From: Escherichia phage EMCL318
Sequence record: MG563770.1
Length of the DNA stretch: 5,489 bases
Reading direction: 5' to 3' (one strand)
A program made the position numbers and the translations under genes. Position 1 is the first letter of the stretch. Each line of letters begins with the position of its first letter. The notes beneath the pieces were generated by a model. That model saw only the letters and a program-made list of their open reading frames with translations. It was not told where the DNA came from and did no database searches. Below are positions 1 to 5,489 of this stretch, piece after piece.

Positions 1-3
1 TGC

Positions 4-33
4 TTGACTAAAATCTATCTCTTCACTTAACAT
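4..33 (+). promoter_or_regulatory. Candidate sigma70 promoter for gene A (PA-like): -35 TTGACT at 4-9, 18-nt spacer, -10 TAACAT at 28-33
   Basis: Read directly from the sequence: 5/6 match to TTGACA and 4/6 match to TATAAT with the invariant A2 and T6 present. The position just upstream of A matches where phiX174-type phages place PA. The -10 overlaps the ATG at 32. Confidence 0.35.
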
Positions 34-61
34 GCCTCCAAACCAACGGAGGCTTTTCTAC

Positions 62-1732
62 ATGCAACAACACTTAACCGCTTCGGACTTCTACCGCAAA
101 CCAATAATCGACGCTATCAAACCTCTTGTCGAAACTGCTGGAATGTCTGTGCTTACTCAATCTCCTAACCTCCGTATCTGGAAACAGTGCAATACTCGCG
201 TAAAACTGCTGGAAGAAATTCTAAATCACTACACTAACGGTATTCGCCGTGATGATAATGGTGACTTCTTTCTCAACCCTGAATGCCAACTCGCTACTAC
301 AATTGCTTATCGTGCTCACAAAAAGGGCCATAACCCTCGCTTTAAACAATACCCTGAATCGTTCACTCTGGACGATATTATTACTGGCAAGCCAATCCCT
401 CAGACTGCTCCTTCTGAACTTCAACTTACTGATGAAATCGGTGAGGATTACCGCCTTACTGTACTCTCCATAATCGAAGAGTTAGACGAATGCTACAACG
501 TGCTCGGACAACTTGATATTAATAACACTATAGACCACAAACCTATCGGTAACGCCAAATGGGACTTAATGTATGAAAAACCTGTCTATAAACACTGGTA
601 TGAACTGGTATCAAAACGACCCCTTAAATCAATCAGAGAGGACTACAACTATGCAAAGGCTAAGGGTACTAAAGATGAGTGCTCGAAAATCCTTGAGGAA
701 TCCACCATGAAATCCCGGCGCGGCTTTACCGTACAAAGATTAATGAATGCTATGCGCACCGCTCACACTGATGGATGGTACGTTGTATTCGATACTCTTA
801 CCTTAGCTGATGACCGTATTAAGGACTTCTATGCTAACCCCAATGCTCTTCGTGACTATTTCCGTGATATTGGTCGTATGGTCCTCACTGCCGAGGGTCG
901 TTCGGTCCATGATTCATCTACGGACTGCTATCAGTACTTTTGTGTGCCTGAGTATGGCACCCAGCATGGCCGTTTACACTTTCACGCAGTGCATCTTATG
1001 CGCACACTTCCTTTGGGTTCTCTCGACCCTAACTTTGGTAAGCTGGTGCGTACTAATCGGCAAATAAATAGCTTGCAAAACACATGGCCTTATGGTTACT
1101 CTATGCCCATCGCAGTCCGGTACTCTCAAGATGCTTTCTCTCGCGCTGGATGGCTCTGGCCTGTTGATACAAAGGGTGAACCCCTTAAATCCACCTCGTA
1201 TATGGCTGTAGGCTTCTACGTTGCTAAATACGTTAATAAAAAATCTGATGTTGACATAGCCGCAAAAGGCTTAGGGAATCAAAAATGGAACGCTACATTA
1301 AAAACGCAGATGGCTCTTTTACCAAAGAAACTATTCCGAATCCGAATGAGCCGCAACTTCGGGATGAAACTACTCCCAATGACGACGCTCACCGCGGAGT
1401 GCTTAATCCAACTGACCCAAGTGGGTTACGACGTGACCCCGTTCAACAACATCTTGAAGCAGAACGCCAAGAAAGAGCTACGATTGAGGCTGGCAAAGCA
1501 ATCTGTAGCCGACGTTTTGGAGGCGCAACCTGTGACGACCAATCTGCTAAAATTCATGCGCAATTTGACCCGCAAAATCGGAGCGTCCAGCCTACAGAGT
1601 TTTATCGCTTCAATGACGCAGAAATTAGCAAGTACGGATATTTCTGATGAAACCAAAAACTACGTTACTAATGCAGGAATTGCTGTTGCTGACTTACGAC
1701 TTAAATCGAAGTGGACTGCTGGTGGAAAATGA
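62..1732 (+). CDS. A: Replication initiation protein A (HUH rolling-circle endonuclease), 556 aa from ATG 62; the ORF is open from an upstream ATG at 32 (566 aa)
   Basis: The translation matches recalled phiX174 protein A over long stretches ([17 protein letters not shown], MKSRRGF, [16 protein letters not shown], [90 protein letters not shown]). GGAGG at 48-52 sits 9 nt before ATG 62; no Shine-Dalgarno precedes ATG 32. The TGA stop at 1730-1732 overlaps the C start. Confidence 0.9.
509..538 (+). other. Viral (+) strand origin of rolling-circle replication: 30-nt conserved origin CAACTTGATATTAATAACACTATAGACCAC, expected nick between G515 and A516
   Basis: Exact 30/30 match to the recalled phiX174 origin 30-mer that protein A nicks. 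It lies inside gene A and encodes [12 protein letters not shown], as in phiX174 and G4. Confidence 0.85.
707..1732 (+). CDS. A*: A* protein: in-frame internal start within A, 341 aa, begins MKSRRGF
   Basis: ATG at 707 is in the A frame and corresponds to the phiX174 A* start (residue 173 of phiX A, MKSRRGF). GAGGA at 692-696 lies 10 nt upstream. The predicted length equals phiX174 A* (341 aa). Confidence 0.5.
1285..1647 (+). CDS. B: Internal scaffolding protein B, 120 aa, overprinted within gene A in a different frame
   Basis: The translation ([57 protein letters not shown]) matches recalled phiX174 protein B and has the same length. The TGA stop at 1645-1647 overlaps the K start (TGATG). 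Confidence 0.9.
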
Positions 1733-1817
1733 AGAACTTCAATCTCAACTTAAAGAACTCGAGGGCGTCTTACTTCGCAACCTTTCGCCATCATCTAAAC
1801 GTGGTGGCAAAGACTGA
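1647..1817 (+). CDS. K: Protein K, 56 aa, overlapping the 3' end of A and the 5' end of C in the third frame
   Basis: Not in the supplied ORF track (too short). My translation from ATG 1647 is [56 protein letters not shown] with TGA at 1815-1817. It matches recalled phiX174 K (…KQELLLLVYELNRSGLLAENEKI…CDLSPS…) and has the same 56-aa length. Confidence 0.8.
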
Positions 1818-1998
1818 CGCACTTGATGAGGAAAAATGGCTCAACATGATGGGCGCTCTTCTCAAGGACTGGTTCCGCTATGAACAACATTTCGTACATG
1901 GCAAAGAATCAATGCTTGACATTCTAAATGAACGTGGCCTATTATCCACCTTGCCAAATGGCTTAACTTGCAAAGGAATCAAAAATGAAAGCAAATGA
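1729..1998 (+). CDS. C: Protein C (ssDNA synthesis and packaging switch), 89 aa
   Basis: From ATG 1729 the translation is [40 protein letters not shown]…, matching recalled phiX174 C (SSYFATFRH…[13 protein letters not shown]…KDWFRYE.HFVHG). The ATG overlaps the A stop as ATGA (1729-1732). The ORF-track start at 1711 is a GTG extension. Confidence 0.85.
1916..1945 (+). promoter_or_regulatory. Candidate sigma70 promoter for the late genes (PD-like): -35 TTGACA at 1916-1921, 18-nt spacer, -10 TATTAT at 1940-1945
   Basis: 6/6 match at -35 and 5/6 at -10, read directly from the sequence. It lies inside gene C about 40 nt upstream of the D start, where phiX174-type phages place PD. Confidence 0.4.
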
Positions 1999-2446
1999 GA
2001 ACGCAGTAGCCTTTCAAACCGCTATTGCCTCCATCAAACTTATTCGGTCATCTTCTGTTCTTGACCTGACTGAGGACGATTTCGAATTCTTAACTCGTGA
2101 CCGTGTATGGATTGCAACTGACCGCTCCCGTGCTCGCCGCGCTATTGAGGCTTGCGTCTATGGAACACTGGACTTTGTCGGCTATCCTCGCTTTCCTGCT
2201 CCTATTGAGTTTATTGCTGCCGTCATTGCTTATTATGTTCATCCCGTTAACATTCAAACGGCATGTCTTATTATGGAAGGCGCTGAATTCACCGAAAACA
2301 TCATTAATGGTGTCGATGCCCCGGTTAAAGCCGCTGAACTCTTCGCGTTTACCCTGCGTGTACGCGCCGGAAACACTGAACTTATTACTTACGCAGAAAA
2401 CAACGCACGTGAAAAATTACGTGCTCAAGGAGTGATGGATGTCTAA
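1985..2446 (+). CDS. D: External scaffolding protein D, 153 aa
   Basis: Strong match to recalled phiX174 D (FQTAxASIKLI, VLDLTEDDF.FLT, VWIATDRSRARR, EACVYGTLDFVGYPRFPAP.EFIAAVIAYYVHPVNIQTACLIMEGAEFTENIINGV, PVKAAELFAFTLRVRAGNT). AAGGA at 1972-1976 lies 8 nt before the ATG. The start overlaps the C 3' end by 14 nt. Confidence 0.92.
   Translation: MKANENAVAFQTAIASIKLIRSSSVLDLTEDDFEFLTRDRVWIATDRSRARRAIEACVYGTLDFVGYPRFPAPIEFIAAVIAYYVHPVNIQTACLIMEGAEFTENIINGVDAPVKAAELFAFTLRVRAGNTELITYAENNAREKLRAQGVMDV
2160..2435 (+). CDS. E: Lysis protein E (MraY-inhibiting membrane protein), 91 aa, overprinted in the +1 frame of D
   Basis: From ATG 2160 the translation MEHWTLSAILAFLLLLSLLLPSLLIMFIPLTFKR…LPCVYA.ETL…LLTQK…VKNYV.KE matches recalled phiX174 E, including the N-terminal transmembrane segment with Pro21, and has the same 91-aa length. 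GAGG at 2147-2150 is upstream. The ORF-track start at 2097 is a GTG extension. Confidence 0.85.
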   Translation: MEHWTLSAILAFLLLLSLLLPSLLIMFIPLTFKRHVLLWKALNSPKTSLMVSMPRLKPLNSSRLPCVYAPETLNLLLTQKTTHVKNYVLKE

Positions 2447-2519
2447 AAAATCTATTCGCCGTTCTGGCGGTAAATCTAAAGGTGCTCGCCTCTGGTATGT
2501 TGGCGGCACACAATTCTAA
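2439..2519 (+). CDS. J: Small basic DNA-binding/packaging protein J, 26 aa (MSKKSIRRSGGKSKGARLWYVGGTQF)
   Basis: My translation from ATG 2439 to TAA 2517-2519. It has 7 Lys/Arg and no acidic residues. AAGGAG at 2427-2432 lies 6 nt upstream. It is short like the G4-type J rather than the 38-aa phiX174 J. It overlaps the D 3' end by 8 nt. Confidence 0.85.
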   Translation: MSKKSIRRSGGKSKGARLWYVGGTQF

Positions 2520-2526
2520 TCTTTAA

Positions 2527-2540
2527 GGGGCTTCGGCCCC
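2527..2540 (+). terminator. J-F intergenic stem-loop GGGGC-TTCG-GCCCC (5-bp GC stem, UUCG-type tetraloop), followed by TCTATTT
   Basis: Perfect inverted repeat read from the sequence. It sits at the position of the post-J terminator/mRNA-stabilising hairpin of phiX174-type phages, immediately before the F ribosome-binding site. Confidence 0.5.
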
Positions 2541-2558
2541 TCTATTTAAGGATACAAA

Positions 2559-3839
2559 ATGTCTAACGTACAAACTTCCGCAGAACGTATTCCGCATGAC
2601 CTCTCACATCTGGTCTTCGAAGCTGGTAAAATCGGTCGCCTTAAAACTATCTCTTGGACTCCTGTTGTCGCTGGTGATTCTTACGAAACTGAAATGGTAG
2701 GCGCTATTCGCCTCTCCCCACTCCGTCGTGGTCTGGCTGTCGACTCTCGCGTCGACGTCTTTACTTTCTACATTCCTCATCGTCATGTCTACGGTCAACA
2801 ATGGATTGACTTTATGAAGACTGGCGTTAACGCTACTCCTTTGGCTCCCGTGACTTGTGCTTCTGGCTGGGACTCTGCTGCCTATCTTGGCACTATCCCG
2901 TCAACTAACTTGAAGGTTCCTAAATTCCTTCATCAATCTTATCTGAACATTTACAACAACTACTTTAAGCCGCCGTGGTCTAATGACCTCACTTACGCTA
3001 ACCCATCTAATATGCCTGCTGAGGATTACAAATGGGGCGTTCGTGTCGCTAACTTAAAATCTATCTGGACCGCGCCCCTTCCTCCTGATTCATTAACTAA
3101 GCAGGATATGACCACTGGCGCTACTACTATCGATATTATGGGCCTACAAGCTGCCTATGCTAAACTCCATACTGAACAGGAACGTGACTACTTCATGACT
3201 CGCTACCGCGATATTATGAAAGACTTTGGCGGTCACACCTCTTATGACGGTGATAACCGTCCTCTGCTCCTGATGCGCTCTGAATTTTGGGCCTCTGGCT
3301 ATGACGTCGACGGTACTGACCAAACTTCATTGGGTCAGTTCTCTGGTCGCGTCCAACAAACTTTTAATCATAAAGTGCCTCGCTTCTATGTTCCTGAGCA
3401 TGGCGTAATTATGACTTTATCTGTTACTCGCTTCCCTCCTACTCATGAAATGGAAATGCACTATCTCGTCGGTAAGGAATCTCTAACTTACACTGATATT
3501 GCCTGTGACCCTGCTCTTATGGCTAACCTGCCTCCACGTGAAATTGAGGTAAAAGACCTCTTCCACTCTGCTGGCACTGGTAAATTCAAAATTGCCGAAG
3601 GTCAATGGTATCGTACTCAACCTGACCGCGTTGCCTTCCCTTATAACGCTCTCGACGGCTTCCCTTTCTACTCTAAACTGCCGTCTAATGATATTCTCGA
3701 ACGTGTACTTGTTCACACTGATAACTACGATGAAATATTCCAGTCTATGCAACTTGTACACTGGAATATGCAAACTAAATTTAACACTACTGTATATCGT
3801 CATATGCCTACTACTCGCGATGGCATCATGACTTCTTAA
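2559..3839 (+). CDS. F: Major capsid protein F, 426 aa
   Basis: Extensive match to recalled phiX174 F (MSN.QT.AER.PHDLSHL, GRL.TIS.TPV.AGDS, RLSPLRRGLA.DS.VD.FTFY.PHRHVYG.QWI.FMK.GVNATPL, YLNIYNNYFK.PW, IWTAPLPP, IDIMGLQAAYA.LHT.QERDYFM.RY, DNRPLL.MRS, WASGYDVDGTDQTSLGQFSGRVQQT, FKIAEGQWYR, VYR..PTTRD.IMTS). AAGGA at 2548-2552 lies 6 nt before the ATG. Confidence 0.95.
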   Translation: MSNVQTSAERIPHDLSHLVFEAGKIGRLKTISWTPVVAGDSYETEMVGAIRLSPLRRGLAVDSRVDVFTFYIPHRHVYGQQWIDFMKTGVNATPLAPVTCASGWDSAAYLGTIPSTNLKVPKFLHQSYLNIYNNYFKPPWSNDLTYANPSNMPAEDYKWGVRVANLKSIWTAPLPPDSLTKQDMTTGATTIDIMGLQAAYAKLHTEQERDYFMTRYRDIMKDFGGHTSYDGDNRPLLLMRSEFWASGYDVDGTDQTSLGQFSGRVQQTFNHKVPRFYVPEHGVIMTLSVTRFPPTHEMEMHYLVGKESLTYTDIACDPALMANLPPREIEVKDLFHSAGTGKFKIAEGQWYRTQPDRVAFPYNALDGFPFYSKLPSNDILERVLVHTDNYDEIFQSMQLVHWNMQTKFNTTVYRHMPTTRDGIMTS

Positions 3840-3848
3840 AACAAAACG

Positions 3849-3913
3849 TTGAACGGGTACAAATTTTAATTTGTGCCTGTTCAAGGTTGAACAAGCGAAG
3901 CGCGTTAGCTAAC
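3849..3913 (+). other. F-G intergenic structured region: long imperfect hairpin (3849-3884), GCGAAGC mini-hairpin motif (3895-3901) and 10-bp palindrome GTTAGCTAAC (3904-3913); candidate complementary-strand origin and/or post-F terminator
   Basis: Inverted repeats read directly from the sequence: arms TTGAACGGGTACAAATT and AATTTGTGCCTGTTCAA give 15 Watson-Crick pairs plus 2 G:T pairs. In G4-type phages the primase-dependent complementary-strand origin lies in the F-G intergenic region. Confidence 0.45.
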
Positions 3914-3931
3914 TTACTTAAGGAAATTCTC

Positions 3932-4465
3932 ATGTTTCAAACTTATCTCTCTAAACATAATTCTCCGTTAACTTCTCAGTCTATTACTGCTACAAAAACA
4001 CCTGCGGCTGCTGCTCCGATTATTTCTACACCGGAGCTTAGCCGCTCTACTATTTTCGCTGGCTTAACTCTGACTGCTGCCACTGCTCATTCTGGTGTCG
4101 CTCATGTCGTTCGTATTGACGAAACCAATCCTACTGACAATCAGGTTTTATCGGTCGCCGCTTCTTTATCTGGCGTACCGTCTGATGCTATTGCTATTGC
4201 TATTCGCTTTGAAGTCGCTGACGGTACCGTCCCTACTGCTCTCCCTGCTCTCTACTCTGCTTATCCGGTGGAATTCTTCACTTCTGGCGCTGCTCTGTCT
4301 TGTAAGGATGCCGTATCTATTCCGACGCATCCTGTTACTGCTGGTAATGATGTATATGCTGGTATTCTTATCTGGTCCAAATCTTGGTCCGCTGGTGTCG
4401 TCTCCGGCCTCTTATCTGTTAATCAGGTAAATCGTGAAACTACCGTACTCCAACCTCTTAAATAA
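3932..4465 (+). CDS. G: Major spike protein G, 177 aa
   Basis: From ATG 3932 the translation MFQTYLSKHNSP… with C-terminus …LSVNQVNRETTVLQPLK matches recalled phiX174 G (MFQTFISRHNS…LVSLNQVIKEI.CLQPLK), and the central region keeps RFE, VPT.LP.AY and GN.VY.G motifs. AAGGA at 3920-3924 lies 7 nt upstream. The ORF-track start at 3887 is a TTG extension. Confidence 0.9.
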   Translation: MFQTYLSKHNSPLTSQSITATKTPAAAAPIISTPELSRSTIFAGLTLTAATAHSGVAHVVRIDETNPTDNQVLSVAASLSGVPSDAIAIAIRFEVADGTVPTALPALYSAYPVEFFTSGAALSCKDAVSIPTHPVTAGNDVYAGILIWSKSWSAGVVSGLLSVNQVNRETTVLQPLK

Positions 4466-4475
4466 GGTCTAATCT

Positions 4476-5489
4476 ATGTTCGGTGCAATCGCTGGCGGTA
4501 TCGCCTCCTCTCTCGCTGGTGGACTCCTGAACAAAGCATTCGGGGGCGGTTCTTCCGCTCCCCAATCTGGCGTTCAAGGTAATGTCCTCGCTACTGACAA
4601 TAATGTAATCGGTGCTAATGATGCTGGTATCAAATCCGCTATTCAGGGTTCTAATCCTCCCAATAGTCAACAAGCTGCTCCCAATGCTATATCGGGCGTT
4701 CTTGCCGATACTGGCAAAGACGCCCTATCTTCAATCACTGGCGCTGGCGTTAATAAACTTATGGAAAAAGTCGGGCTATCTAAAGATGCTGCTGCTAAAG
4801 GTAAGGATACAAAAGATTATCTTGCTTCTGCGTTCCCCGAACTCAACCCGTGGGAACGTGCTGGCGCTGGTGCTTCTTCTGCTGGAATGGTTGATGCGGG
4901 ATTCCAAAACCAAAAGGAATTAACTCGCATGCAGCTTGACAATCAAAAAGAAATCGCTAAGATGCAAAACGACACTCAAAAGGATATCGCTGGTATCCAG
5001 TCTCTTACTTCTCGGCAAAATACTAAGGACTCTGTGTATGCTCAAAACGAAATGCTCCAATACAACCAAAAAGAATCTATGTCACGTGTTGGCGCTATTC
5101 TCGAAAACACAAGCCTCACCAAACAACAACAAACTTCTGAAATTATGCGGCAAATGCTTACTCAAGCTCAGACCGCAGGTCAACATTTTACAAATGACCA
5201 AATCCAAGAACTTACTCGAAAGGTCGGCGCTGATATTGATGCTGTTCGTGCTAACACTGAACGTACACATGTAGAAACGGACCGCTCTAAGCAGGAGGTC
5301 CAAAACTCTCGTTACGCTTCCTCACAAGTCGGTAAAACCGCTAAGGATGTATCAAATGTCATTAGTGACGCATCTTCTGGTATTGTTGATTATTTTCGTG
5401 GCGTTGATAAAGCTGTCGCGGATACTTGGAACAATTATTTCAAAGATGGCAAATCGGATGGGATAAGCTCAAATCATCGTACCAAATAA
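4476..5489 (+). CDS. H: Minor spike / DNA pilot protein H, 337 aa
   Basis: Strong match to recalled phiX174 H ([151 protein letters not shown]). AAGG at 4464-4467 lies 8 nt upstream. The TAA stop is the last 3 nt of the window. Confidence 0.93.

Follow-up and report, generated by a model that had tools for sequence, protein, structure and literature searches.

The stretch of DNA analysed, hereafter the window, is 5,489 nucleotides long and carries eleven genes on the plus strand in canonical order, each starting with ATG, free of internal stops, intact and present in a single copy (Table 1). All ten distinct proteins (10/10) score above the curated Pfam thresholds for the microvirus families to which they belong, and only 202 nt (3.7%) of the 5489 are non-coding. 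A tRNA scan and an Rfam search (E <= 1) of the window found none.

The rolling-circle initiator A contains an HUH motif (HFHAVH, residues 306-311) and a two-tyrosine motif (YVAKYV, residues 386-391). Its start was placed at ATG 62, the annotated homologous start, while the mechanical list of open reading frames runs on to ATG 32. The gpA* entry of Escherichia phage EMCL318 (AUG88355.1) falls in the same cluster as A*/A of the window. The genes are tightly interlocked: the ATG of C overlaps the stop codon of A (ATGA), the 3' end of C overlaps D by 14 nt, and the first 8 nt of J lie within D. The E sequence has an N-terminal membrane helix with Pro21, and J contains seven Lys/Arg residues. Two further elements owe their labels to position only, namely the candidate P_D and the terminator-like hairpin in the J-F spacer.

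Table 1. Genes and other features of the window
Feature	Coordinates	Strand	Evidence and remarks
H-A intergenic spacer	1..61	+	promoter-like site, hairpin, ribosome-binding site of A
Promoter-like site TTGACT-18-TAACAT	4-33	+	position homologous to phiX174 P_A
GC hairpin then TTTTCT	34-53	+	H terminator-like
GGAGG, ribosome-binding site of A	48-52	+	nine bases upstream of ATG 62
A, rolling-circle replication initiator, 556 aa	62..1732	+	PF05840 2.6e-57; exact AUG88354.1
Viral-strand origin, 30 nt, CAACTTGATATTAATAACACTATAGACCAC	509..538	+	exact match inside A, none expected by chance
A*, in-frame internal start in A, 341 aa	707..1732	+	same position as annotated A* of WA14 and ID18
B, internal scaffolding, 120 aa	1285..1647	+	PF02304 1.3e-48; identical to WA14 B; other frame, nested in A
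K, 56 aa	1647..1817	+	PF12283 3.7e-15; identical to WA14 K; overlaps A and C
C, DNA-maturation switch protein, 89 aa	1729..1998	+	PF12025 2e-37; exact EMCL318 match
Candidate P_D, TTGACA-18-TATTAT	1916..1945	+	best sigma-70-like site in window, 11/12; 40 nt upstream of D
D, external scaffolding, 153 aa	1985..2446	+	PF02925 7.2e-82; exact AUG88359.1
E, lysis protein, 91 aa	2160..2435	+	PF04517 1.1e-16; identical to WA14 E; nested in D
J, small basic DNA-packaging protein, 26 codons	2439..2519	+	PF04726 2.3e-16; identical to WA14 J
Divergent J-F block	2462..3836	+	55/80 WA14 substitutions, nearly all synonymous
GC-rich hairpin AGGGGC-TTCG-GCCCCT, J-F spacer	2526..2541	+	spacer fold -14.1 kcal/mol; terminator-like
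F, major capsid, 426 aa	2559..3839	+	PF02305 2.3e-157; exact AUG88362.1
F-G intergenic region	3840..3931	+	long hairpin, then conserved box GGTTGAACAAGCGAAGCGCG
F-G long hairpin	3845-3888	+	main stem 3849-3864 with 3869-3884
G, major spike, 177 aa	3932..4465	+	PF02306 4.6e-33; exact AUG88363.1
H, DNA pilot/minor spike, 337 aa	4476..5489	+	PF04687 4.4e-137; exact AUG88364.1

The 30-mer of the viral-strand origin recurs unchanged in phiX174 (4299-4328, where rep_origin is annotated at 4306), and the other G4-like genomes that were fetched whole have it as well. The A protein is expected to nick it between G515 and A516.

The original prediction described all eleven canonical phiX174/G4 genes in order on one strand, without flanking non-phage sequence, in a window that ends on the H stop and begins about 60 nt before A, a spacer of about the phiX174 H-A size. 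Each element of this description is borne out. The last codon is the TAA of H (5487-5489), the ATG of A lies 61 nt from the window start (63 nt for the phiX174 spacer), and positions 1-5489 align collinearly from end to end with 1-5486 of WA14 and ID18, with no foreign flanks. The record thus begins at the first base past the H stop codon, as is usual for GenBank microvirus records. The internal H-A spacers of phiX174, PJNS002, lillemer and SECphi17 can be aligned with that of the window, whose length of 61 nt recurs in the assemblies L014 and L029-L031. Compared with WA14 and ID18, the window has three extra bases here (AAT, 12-14); because L014 and L029 share these bases with the window, the alignment indicates that the difference is a deletion in WA14 and ID18.

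The same prediction took the window for a whole circular genome cut at the H/A junction. Base 5489 adjoins base 1 in five independent assemblies that are cut elsewhere, all of them relatives at 92-97% identity from metagenomes or SRA data (L014 from IMG/VR, L029, L030, L031 and L032 from Logan), and two of these carry terminal repeats (79 nt in L014, 30 nt in L029). More distant records with other cut points are also contiguous across the junction. An IMG/VR search with the exact junction pattern gave no match, and the junction was found later via protein-anchored loci; exact-protein contig look-ups gave no match for H, F, A, G and E, and only one 1-kb contig for B. Because five assemblies cut elsewhere join 5489 to 1, two of them with terminal overlaps, the genome is, as judged from these contiguities, a circle that GenBank convention has opened at this point. 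A fragment, or a linear or integrated copy such as a prophage or a contig piece that has lost its flanks, would fit the lack of a terminal direct repeat of 8 to 199 bases in the window. Such a reading is exceedingly improbable, however, given that no gene is absent, truncated or duplicated, that the five assemblies link both window ends base to base, and that purified virions of the published isolate gave a single ~5.5 kb ssDNA band. Further, megablast against complete E. coli genomes (n=5,426) returned no match to the window, which makes a prophage or an assembly contaminant unlikely.

The circular genome can be assigned to a named phage. A, C, D, F, G and H match the NCBI proteins of EMCL318 exactly (AUG88354/58/59/62/63/64), and these entries belong to a contig of 5489 nt. 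EMCL318 was isolated, sequenced by Sanger primer walking and published in 2018 as a genome of 5,489 bases that differs from WA14 at 79 of them and encodes the same B, E, J and K proteins (Ghosh et al. 2018). The same authors obtained a single band of ~5.5 kb for ssDNA from purified virions, and reported amino-acid changes relative to WA14 in A (1), F (3) and G (1) (Ghosh et al. 2018). The present comparison with WA14 yields 80 substitutions and a 3-nt indel, the same four identical proteins, and amino-acid counts slightly above the published ones (A 2, F 4, G 2). These small discrepancies are what might be expected if the window were a second, unpublished member of the ID18/WA14 lineage, or a microvirus genome that had been engineered or generated by a model and had the same length by chance; phiX-like genomes generated by models do exist in the literature. 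Against this stand the six exact protein matches and a length of 5489 nt that is unique in the clade (WA14 and ID18, 5486; L029, 5497; L014, 5501), so that we regard this explanation as very improbable. Its model-generated variant is rejected because the EMCL318 protein matches are exact. Phage vB_SEC_3, whose description cites EMCL318, was likewise rejected as the identity of the window, being alpha3-like and 6085 nt long. From the six exact proteins, the length and the published description, the window is thus, with near certainty, the circular (+)-strand genome, in full, of Escherichia phage EMCL318 (MG563770), a G4-like microvirus of the genus Gequatrovirus and of the ID18/WA14 branch. The EMCL318 genome is an ordinary, already known object, in agreement with the early view that this was a known system and not a new one.

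The placement among microviruses is consistent at several levels. The external scaffolding protein D and the major spike G separate the phiX174/G4/alpha3-type group (Bullavirinae; Eubullaviridae in the 2026 taxonomy dump) from gokushoviruses, and both are present (PF02925, 7e-82; PF02306, 5e-33). The window further shares with this group eleven collinear genes, nested and overlapping as in WA14, ID18 and G4, and a 30-nt origin inside an A gene that encodes an HUH/two-tyrosine initiator. Its circular genome lies in the ~5.4-6.1 kb range, the single-strandedness being taken from Ghosh et al. 2018. The similarity search against Microviridae genomes that had been proposed as a check placed WA14 and ID18 nearest (98.5% and 97.5% end-to-end identity); all records with at least 80% identity to the window are G4-like, and the nearest relatives are all Gequatrovirus. 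Phage species are usually delimited by ICTV at 95% or more genome-wide nucleotide identity, and at this level the window clusters with ID18/WA14. Protein identities are 64-88% to G4, 39-80% to phiX174 and 28-66% to alpha3. Every one of the ten proteins is nearer to G4 than to alpha3, and nine are also nearer to G4 than to phiX174, the exception being E (76% to phiX174 vs 64% to G4). A value of 67% identity between A and its L014 counterpart is an artefact, as the L014 contig is cut inside A. At both the genome and the protein level, the window is thus closer to G4-like than to phiX174-like or alpha3-like phages. The short J (26 codons) and long A (556 aa) had pointed to the G4 lineage (38 codons and 513 aa in phiX174). 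This holds for phylogenetic closeness, the ID18/WA14 branch being ~78-83% identical to G4, but not for replication type, as the primase-dependent complementary-strand origin of G4 is absent.

Divergence from WA14 is unevenly distributed. The J-F block differs by 4.0%, compared with ~0.6% elsewhere, and is the maximum chi-square block, a value reached by 0/300 permutations. Similarly, dS relative to WA14 is 0.18 for F and 0.015-0.03 for A, G and H. The block is 4% different from both WA14 and ID18, and no closer donor of the F block was found among GenBank phages, nor in L014 (IMG/VR) or L029 (Logan). As it concentrates 55 of the 80 substitutions relative to WA14, the block is probably a recombination tract. 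Sanger primer walking on a mixed lysate could also give a composite sequence, and a chimera that arose from such a mixed phage stock during sequencing or assembly would then mimic natural recombination. This is improbable: the F gene is unbroken and shows only 4 amino-acid changes (dN/dS ~0.03), and L014, an independent metagenome genome, has the same state as the window at 36 of the 55 sites in the block. Further, a reciprocal mosaic separates WA14 from ID18, which diverge in gene A (dS 0.125) more than in F (0.028), and this makes mosaicism a property of the clade.

The F-G spacer concerns the priming of the complementary strand. Its hairpin has a DNA fold of -16.7 kcal/mol (z = -3.9), and the same fold is predicted in phiX174. 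Pairing is kept in 94% of cells over its 19 pairs (40-60% in slide controls), and 8 of the 19 show compensatory change. WA14, ID18 and L029 share the F-G region with 100% identity, and the spacer is 78-80% identical over 64 nt to phiX174 2308-2371 among the phiX174-clade records listed. Both the ID18 and the ID2 branch have the phiX-type element, and the 177 records matched by the spacer include neither G4 nor ID11. Position 2305 of phiX174 lies inside the primosome binding site (PMC3606162). By sequence and modelled fold, the hairpin is homologous to the primosome-assembly (PriA/n') site of phiX174, and it is predicted to serve as the complementary-strand origin; it probably acts as the F terminator too. 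The G4 record, in contrast, places an RNA primer at 3970-3997 in its F-G spacer. With this G4 spacer as the query, matches were obtained in WA3 (96%), L016 (95%) and even alpha3 (77%, E 8e-22), but none in the window, WA14, ID2, L014 or phiX174. EMCL318 thus lacks the DnaG-only complementary-strand origin of the G4 replication type, and PriA-dependent priming of its complementary strand is predicted purely from homology in sequence and structure. It is conceivable, though we put it forward tentatively and consider it somewhat doubtful, that within this single genus of G4-like phages ID18/WA14/EMCL318 and ID2 carry a phiX174-type PriA hairpin where G4 has a DnaG-only origin; if so, the two textbook modes of complementary-strand priming would be exchangeable modules, swapped between microvirus lineages by recombination. 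No discussion of such a swap of F-G priming elements was found in the searchable literature; Rokyta et al. 2006 may already note it.

The sequence features, the phage's identity and the circular junction are established here; beyond them, a life cycle can be proposed in which the biochemistry is taken over by homology with phiX174 and G4. The pilot protein H would accompany entry of the ssDNA, after which host enzymes would synthesise the complementary strand, with predicted priming at the F-G hairpin by the PriA primosome (phiX174 mode) rather than by primase alone (G4 mode). Nicking of the 30-nt origin by A at G515/A516 would start rolling-circle replication. C would then switch replication to the packaging of ssDNA, along with J, into procapsids, in which F, G and H are presumed to be assembled on the scaffolds B and D. 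Finally, E would block MraY and cause cell lysis.

In itself the finding matters little, as EMCL318 is a published isolate; what it does establish is that raw sequence alone was enough to recognise correctly both a complete microvirus genome and the point at which it had been linearised. Those who use wild microviruses as evolution models may derive modest value from the probable recombination tract over the capsid gene and from the observation on priming: in the ID18 and ID2 branches, being "G4-like" does not imply G4-like complementary-strand priming.

Among known systems, phiX174 (NC_001422) shares with the window the identical 30-nt origin, an E of 91 aa, an H-A spacer of similar size with a homologous terminator hairpin, and an F-G hairpin homologous to 2308-2371, the region of the primosome binding site. 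It differs in genus (Sinsheimervirus), in proteins only 39-80% identical, and in the J of 38 codons and A of 513 aa. G4 (NC_001420 / AF454431) shares the genus, the 11-gene plan, the short J, the long A (554 aa, 556 in the window), an H of 337 aa and a G of 177 aa, with 84-88% protein identity for A, D, F, H, J and K. Nucleotide identity to G4 is only ~78-83%, however, and the window is 88 nt shorter, has overlapping D and J instead of a D-J spacer, encodes a C of 89 aa (84 in G4) and an E of 91 aa (96), and lacks the primase-dependent F-G origin. WA14 (DQ079909) and ID18 (DQ079908 / NC_007856) resemble the window in gene order, coordinates (offset 3 nt), overlaps, origin and F-G spacer.

The window is the published genome of Escherichia phage EMCL318, an object already known. 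The phage came from Kamloops sewage, was plated on multidrug-resistant E. coli 15-318, corresponds to GenBank MG563770 (5,489 bases) and was characterised by cryo-EM and MS (Ghosh et al. 2018, PMC6316680). The published isolate, together with exact-sequence matches of the A, C, D, F, G and H proteins to NCBI "Escherichia phage EMCL318" entries, all six listed with a 5489-nt contig, bears out the original prediction of a known rather than a new system. Megablast against GenBank phages placed the coliphages WA14 (98.5%, window 1-5489 against 1-5486) and ID18 (97.5%) nearest, both full-length and collinear, followed by ID2-like and G4-like genomes at ~82-86% across 89-95% of the window; in global alignments, identity was 82% to ID2 and 78% to G4. 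WA14 differs by 80 substitutions and one 3-nt indel, the B, E, J and K proteins being identical. The published comparison likewise found these four proteins identical, with 79 base differences (Ghosh et al. 2018, PMC6316680).

The phiX174/G4 gene set, noticed on one strand at the outset, was found on the plus strand by a six-frame ORF list, direct reading and annotation transferred from WA14/ID18. Every gene starts with ATG and none has an internal stop, while 10/10 distinct proteins exceed the curated Pfam threshold for the corresponding microvirus family. Only 202 nt are non-coding, in four short stretches (1-61, 2520-2558, 3840-3931 and 4466-4475).

Genes and signals of the EMCL318 genome (window coordinates)
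Feature	Coordinates	Strand	Basis or remark	NCBI protein
A	62-1732	+	WA14/ID18 annotation transferred, offset +3 nt; Pfam Phage_GPA	AUG88354.1
A*	707-1732	+	WA14/ID18 annotation transferred, offset +3 nt	
B	1285-1647	+	transferred annotation; Pfam Phage_B	
K	1647-1817	+	transferred annotation; Pfam Protein_K	
C	1729-1998	+	transferred annotation; Pfam Phage_C	AUG88358.1
D	1985-2446	+	transferred annotation; Pfam gpD	AUG88359.1
E	2160-2435	+	transferred annotation; Pfam Microvir_lysis	
J	2439-2519	+	transferred annotation; Pfam Microvir_J	
F	2559-3839	+	transferred annotation; Pfam Phage_F	AUG88362.1
G	3932-4465	+	transferred annotation; Pfam Phage_G	AUG88363.1
H	4476-5489	+	transferred annotation; Pfam Microvir_H	AUG88364.1
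Viral-strand origin	509-538		30 nt, exact	
Promoter-like site	4-33		at P_A position	
Promoter-like site	1916-1945		11/12 score, 40 nt upstream of D	
Hairpin, T-rich tail	34-53		after H	
Hairpin, T-rich tail	2526-2541		after J	

The ORF finder places the start of A further upstream, at an in-frame ATG at 32 that would add 10 codons and sits at the base of the 34-53 hairpin. The start annotated in homologues corresponds to the ATG at 62, with GGAGG nine bases upstream. An equivalent in-frame ATG lies 9 codons upstream of the phiX174 A start, whereas PJNS002, lillemer and SECphi17 read ATAG and lack it. The ATG at 32 is probably not used as a start. The longest antisense ORF (3483-3884, minus strand, 133 aa, TTG start), opposite the end of F, has no coding evidence.

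The 30-nt viral-strand origin is the same in phiX174 and the other G4-like genomes fetched whole, and from its sequence the A protein is predicted to nick between G515 and A516. A carries an HUH motif (HFHAVH, residues 306-311) and a two-tyrosine motif (YVAKYV, residues 386-391), E has an N-terminal membrane helix that includes Pro21, and J is a 26-residue peptide with seven basic residues. By homology with phiX174/G4, whose biology is established, entry would be piloted by H, replication would be rolling-circle with C mediating the replication switch, packaging would proceed with J into F/G/H procapsids on B and D scaffolds, and E would lyse the cell by inhibiting MraY.

The last codon of the window is the H stop, and at its other end 61 nt precede the A start codon, close to the 63-nt H-A spacer of phiX174, as had been noticed at the outset. 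It has no terminal repeat, and its start base, shared with GenBank G4-like records, is the first after the H stop; this is the look of a record rotated to convention. Independent assemblies cut elsewhere span the junction. L014, a 5580-nt IMG/VR contig of 92% overall identity, is cut inside gene A, has a 79-nt terminal direct repeat that implies a 5501-nt circle, and crosses the H/A junction without an indel. The Logan contig L029 (SRR21112064; 5527 nt, 95.5% identity) has a 30-nt terminal repeat implying a 5497-nt circle, and the same holds at the junction for L030-L032, three shorter Logan contigs assembled from other runs. By BLAST, window bases 5489 and 1 are adjacent in 4/4 of these Logan contigs, and the spacer is likewise 61 nt in L029-L031. 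The H stop, spacer and A start are also contiguous in the more distant PJNS002, lillemer, SECphi17 and phiX174, which are cut elsewhere, and a search of 5,426 complete E. coli genomes gave no match to the window. The EMCL318 genome is thus circular and complete at the cut; the original prediction of a circle linearised at H/A held. The AAT at 12-14 is present in L014 and L029 but missing in WA14 and ID18, indicating that the latter two carry a 3-nt spacer deletion, just downstream of a TTGACT hexamer.

EMCL318 belongs to the ID18/WA14 branch of Gequatrovirus. The G4 lineage, first suggested by a short J and a long A, was confirmed by lengths (A: 556 aa, against 554 in G4, 513 in phiX174 and 494 in alpha3; J: 26 codons, against 25, 38 and 24) and by per-protein identities, which are 99-100% to WA14, 90-100% to ID18, 64-88% to G4, 39-80% to phiX174 and 28-66% to alpha3. 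E is the sole protein with this affinity reversed: at 91 aa, the same as in phiX174, it is 76% identical to phiX174 E versus 64% to G4 E (96 aa). The branch is compacted relative to G4, with an 8-nt D/J overlap in place of a 42-nt spacer and an F-G spacer of 92 rather than 136 nt; C and D overlap by 14 nt. NCBI assigns WA14 and ID18 to the species Gequatrovirus G4. The window, near-identical to both, has ~78-83% nucleotide identity to G4, far under the usual 95% species criterion, and the ID18/WA14/EMCL318 cluster appears to form a species of its own. Its three cultured isolates were obtained in the Pacific Northwest and British Columbia. Uncultured relatives, 92-97% identical, are also present in several public sequencing runs (L029; L030-L032 in SRR26638142/132/148) and one JGI metagenome (L014, IMG/VR 3300045988), so the clade ranges beyond these isolates.

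Divergence from WA14 is unevenly distributed. A block from the 3' part of J through F (2462-3836) holds 55 of the 80 substitutions, nearly all synonymous; it is the maximum chi-square block, its value being reached in 0/300 permutations. Synonymous divergence (dS) is 0.18 in F, with only 4 amino-acid changes, versus 0.015-0.03 in A, G and H. Between WA14 and ID18 the pattern is reciprocal, with near identity in F (dS 0.028) and divergence in A (dS 0.125). L014 has the window state at 36/55 of the block sites, so the differences are natural variants rather than errors. Together, the block and the reciprocal mosaic in A suggest that such variants were exchanged by recombination inside the ID18/WA14/EMCL318 clade. 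No closer F donor was found among GenBank phages, and neither L014 nor L029, the two closest metagenomic relatives compared, is one.

The G4 record annotates a primer RNA and the complementary-strand origin inside its F-G spacer. The window spacer (3840-3931) aligns to phiX174 and not to G4 or WA3. As a control query, the G4 spacer matched WA3 (96%), locus L016 (95%) and the alpha3 G-H spacer (77%, E 8e-22), with no match in the window, WA14, ID2, L014 or phiX174. The window spacer matched 177 phage records, comprising ID18/WA14, ID2-like genomes, the lillemer/Lilleto group and the phiX174 clade (phiX174 2308-2371, 78-80% identity); G4 and ID11 were absent among them. The aligned phiX174 segment is the primosome binding site, in which PMC3606162, following Arai and Kornberg 1981, locates position 2305; PMC5778457 describes it as a fork-like hairpin where PriA, PriB, PriC and DnaT load DnaB. 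As ssDNA, the window and phiX174 spacers share a long hairpin fold, located after F (-16.7 kcal/mol, z = -3.9 for the window). Across eight sequences 94% of cells are paired, with compensatory changes in 8/19 pairs, and pairing falls to 40-60% in a slid-partner control. Spacer identity is 100% among the window, WA14, ID18 and L029, while the F and G genes on either side diverge from their L029 counterparts by 8.5% and 5.2%; at these rates full identity has a probability of ~0.001. On the strength of this homology, shared fold and conservation, complementary-strand priming in EMCL318 is predicted to be phiX174-type and PriA-dependent.

The phiX174-type hairpin, without the G4 primase origin, also occurs in WA14, ID18, ID2, ID204, L014 and L029; the spacers of lillemer and Lilleto align to it as well. 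The priming prediction extends equally to sequences public since 2006, and the sole mildly new angle is the presence of a phiX-type F-G element within part of the G4-like genus.
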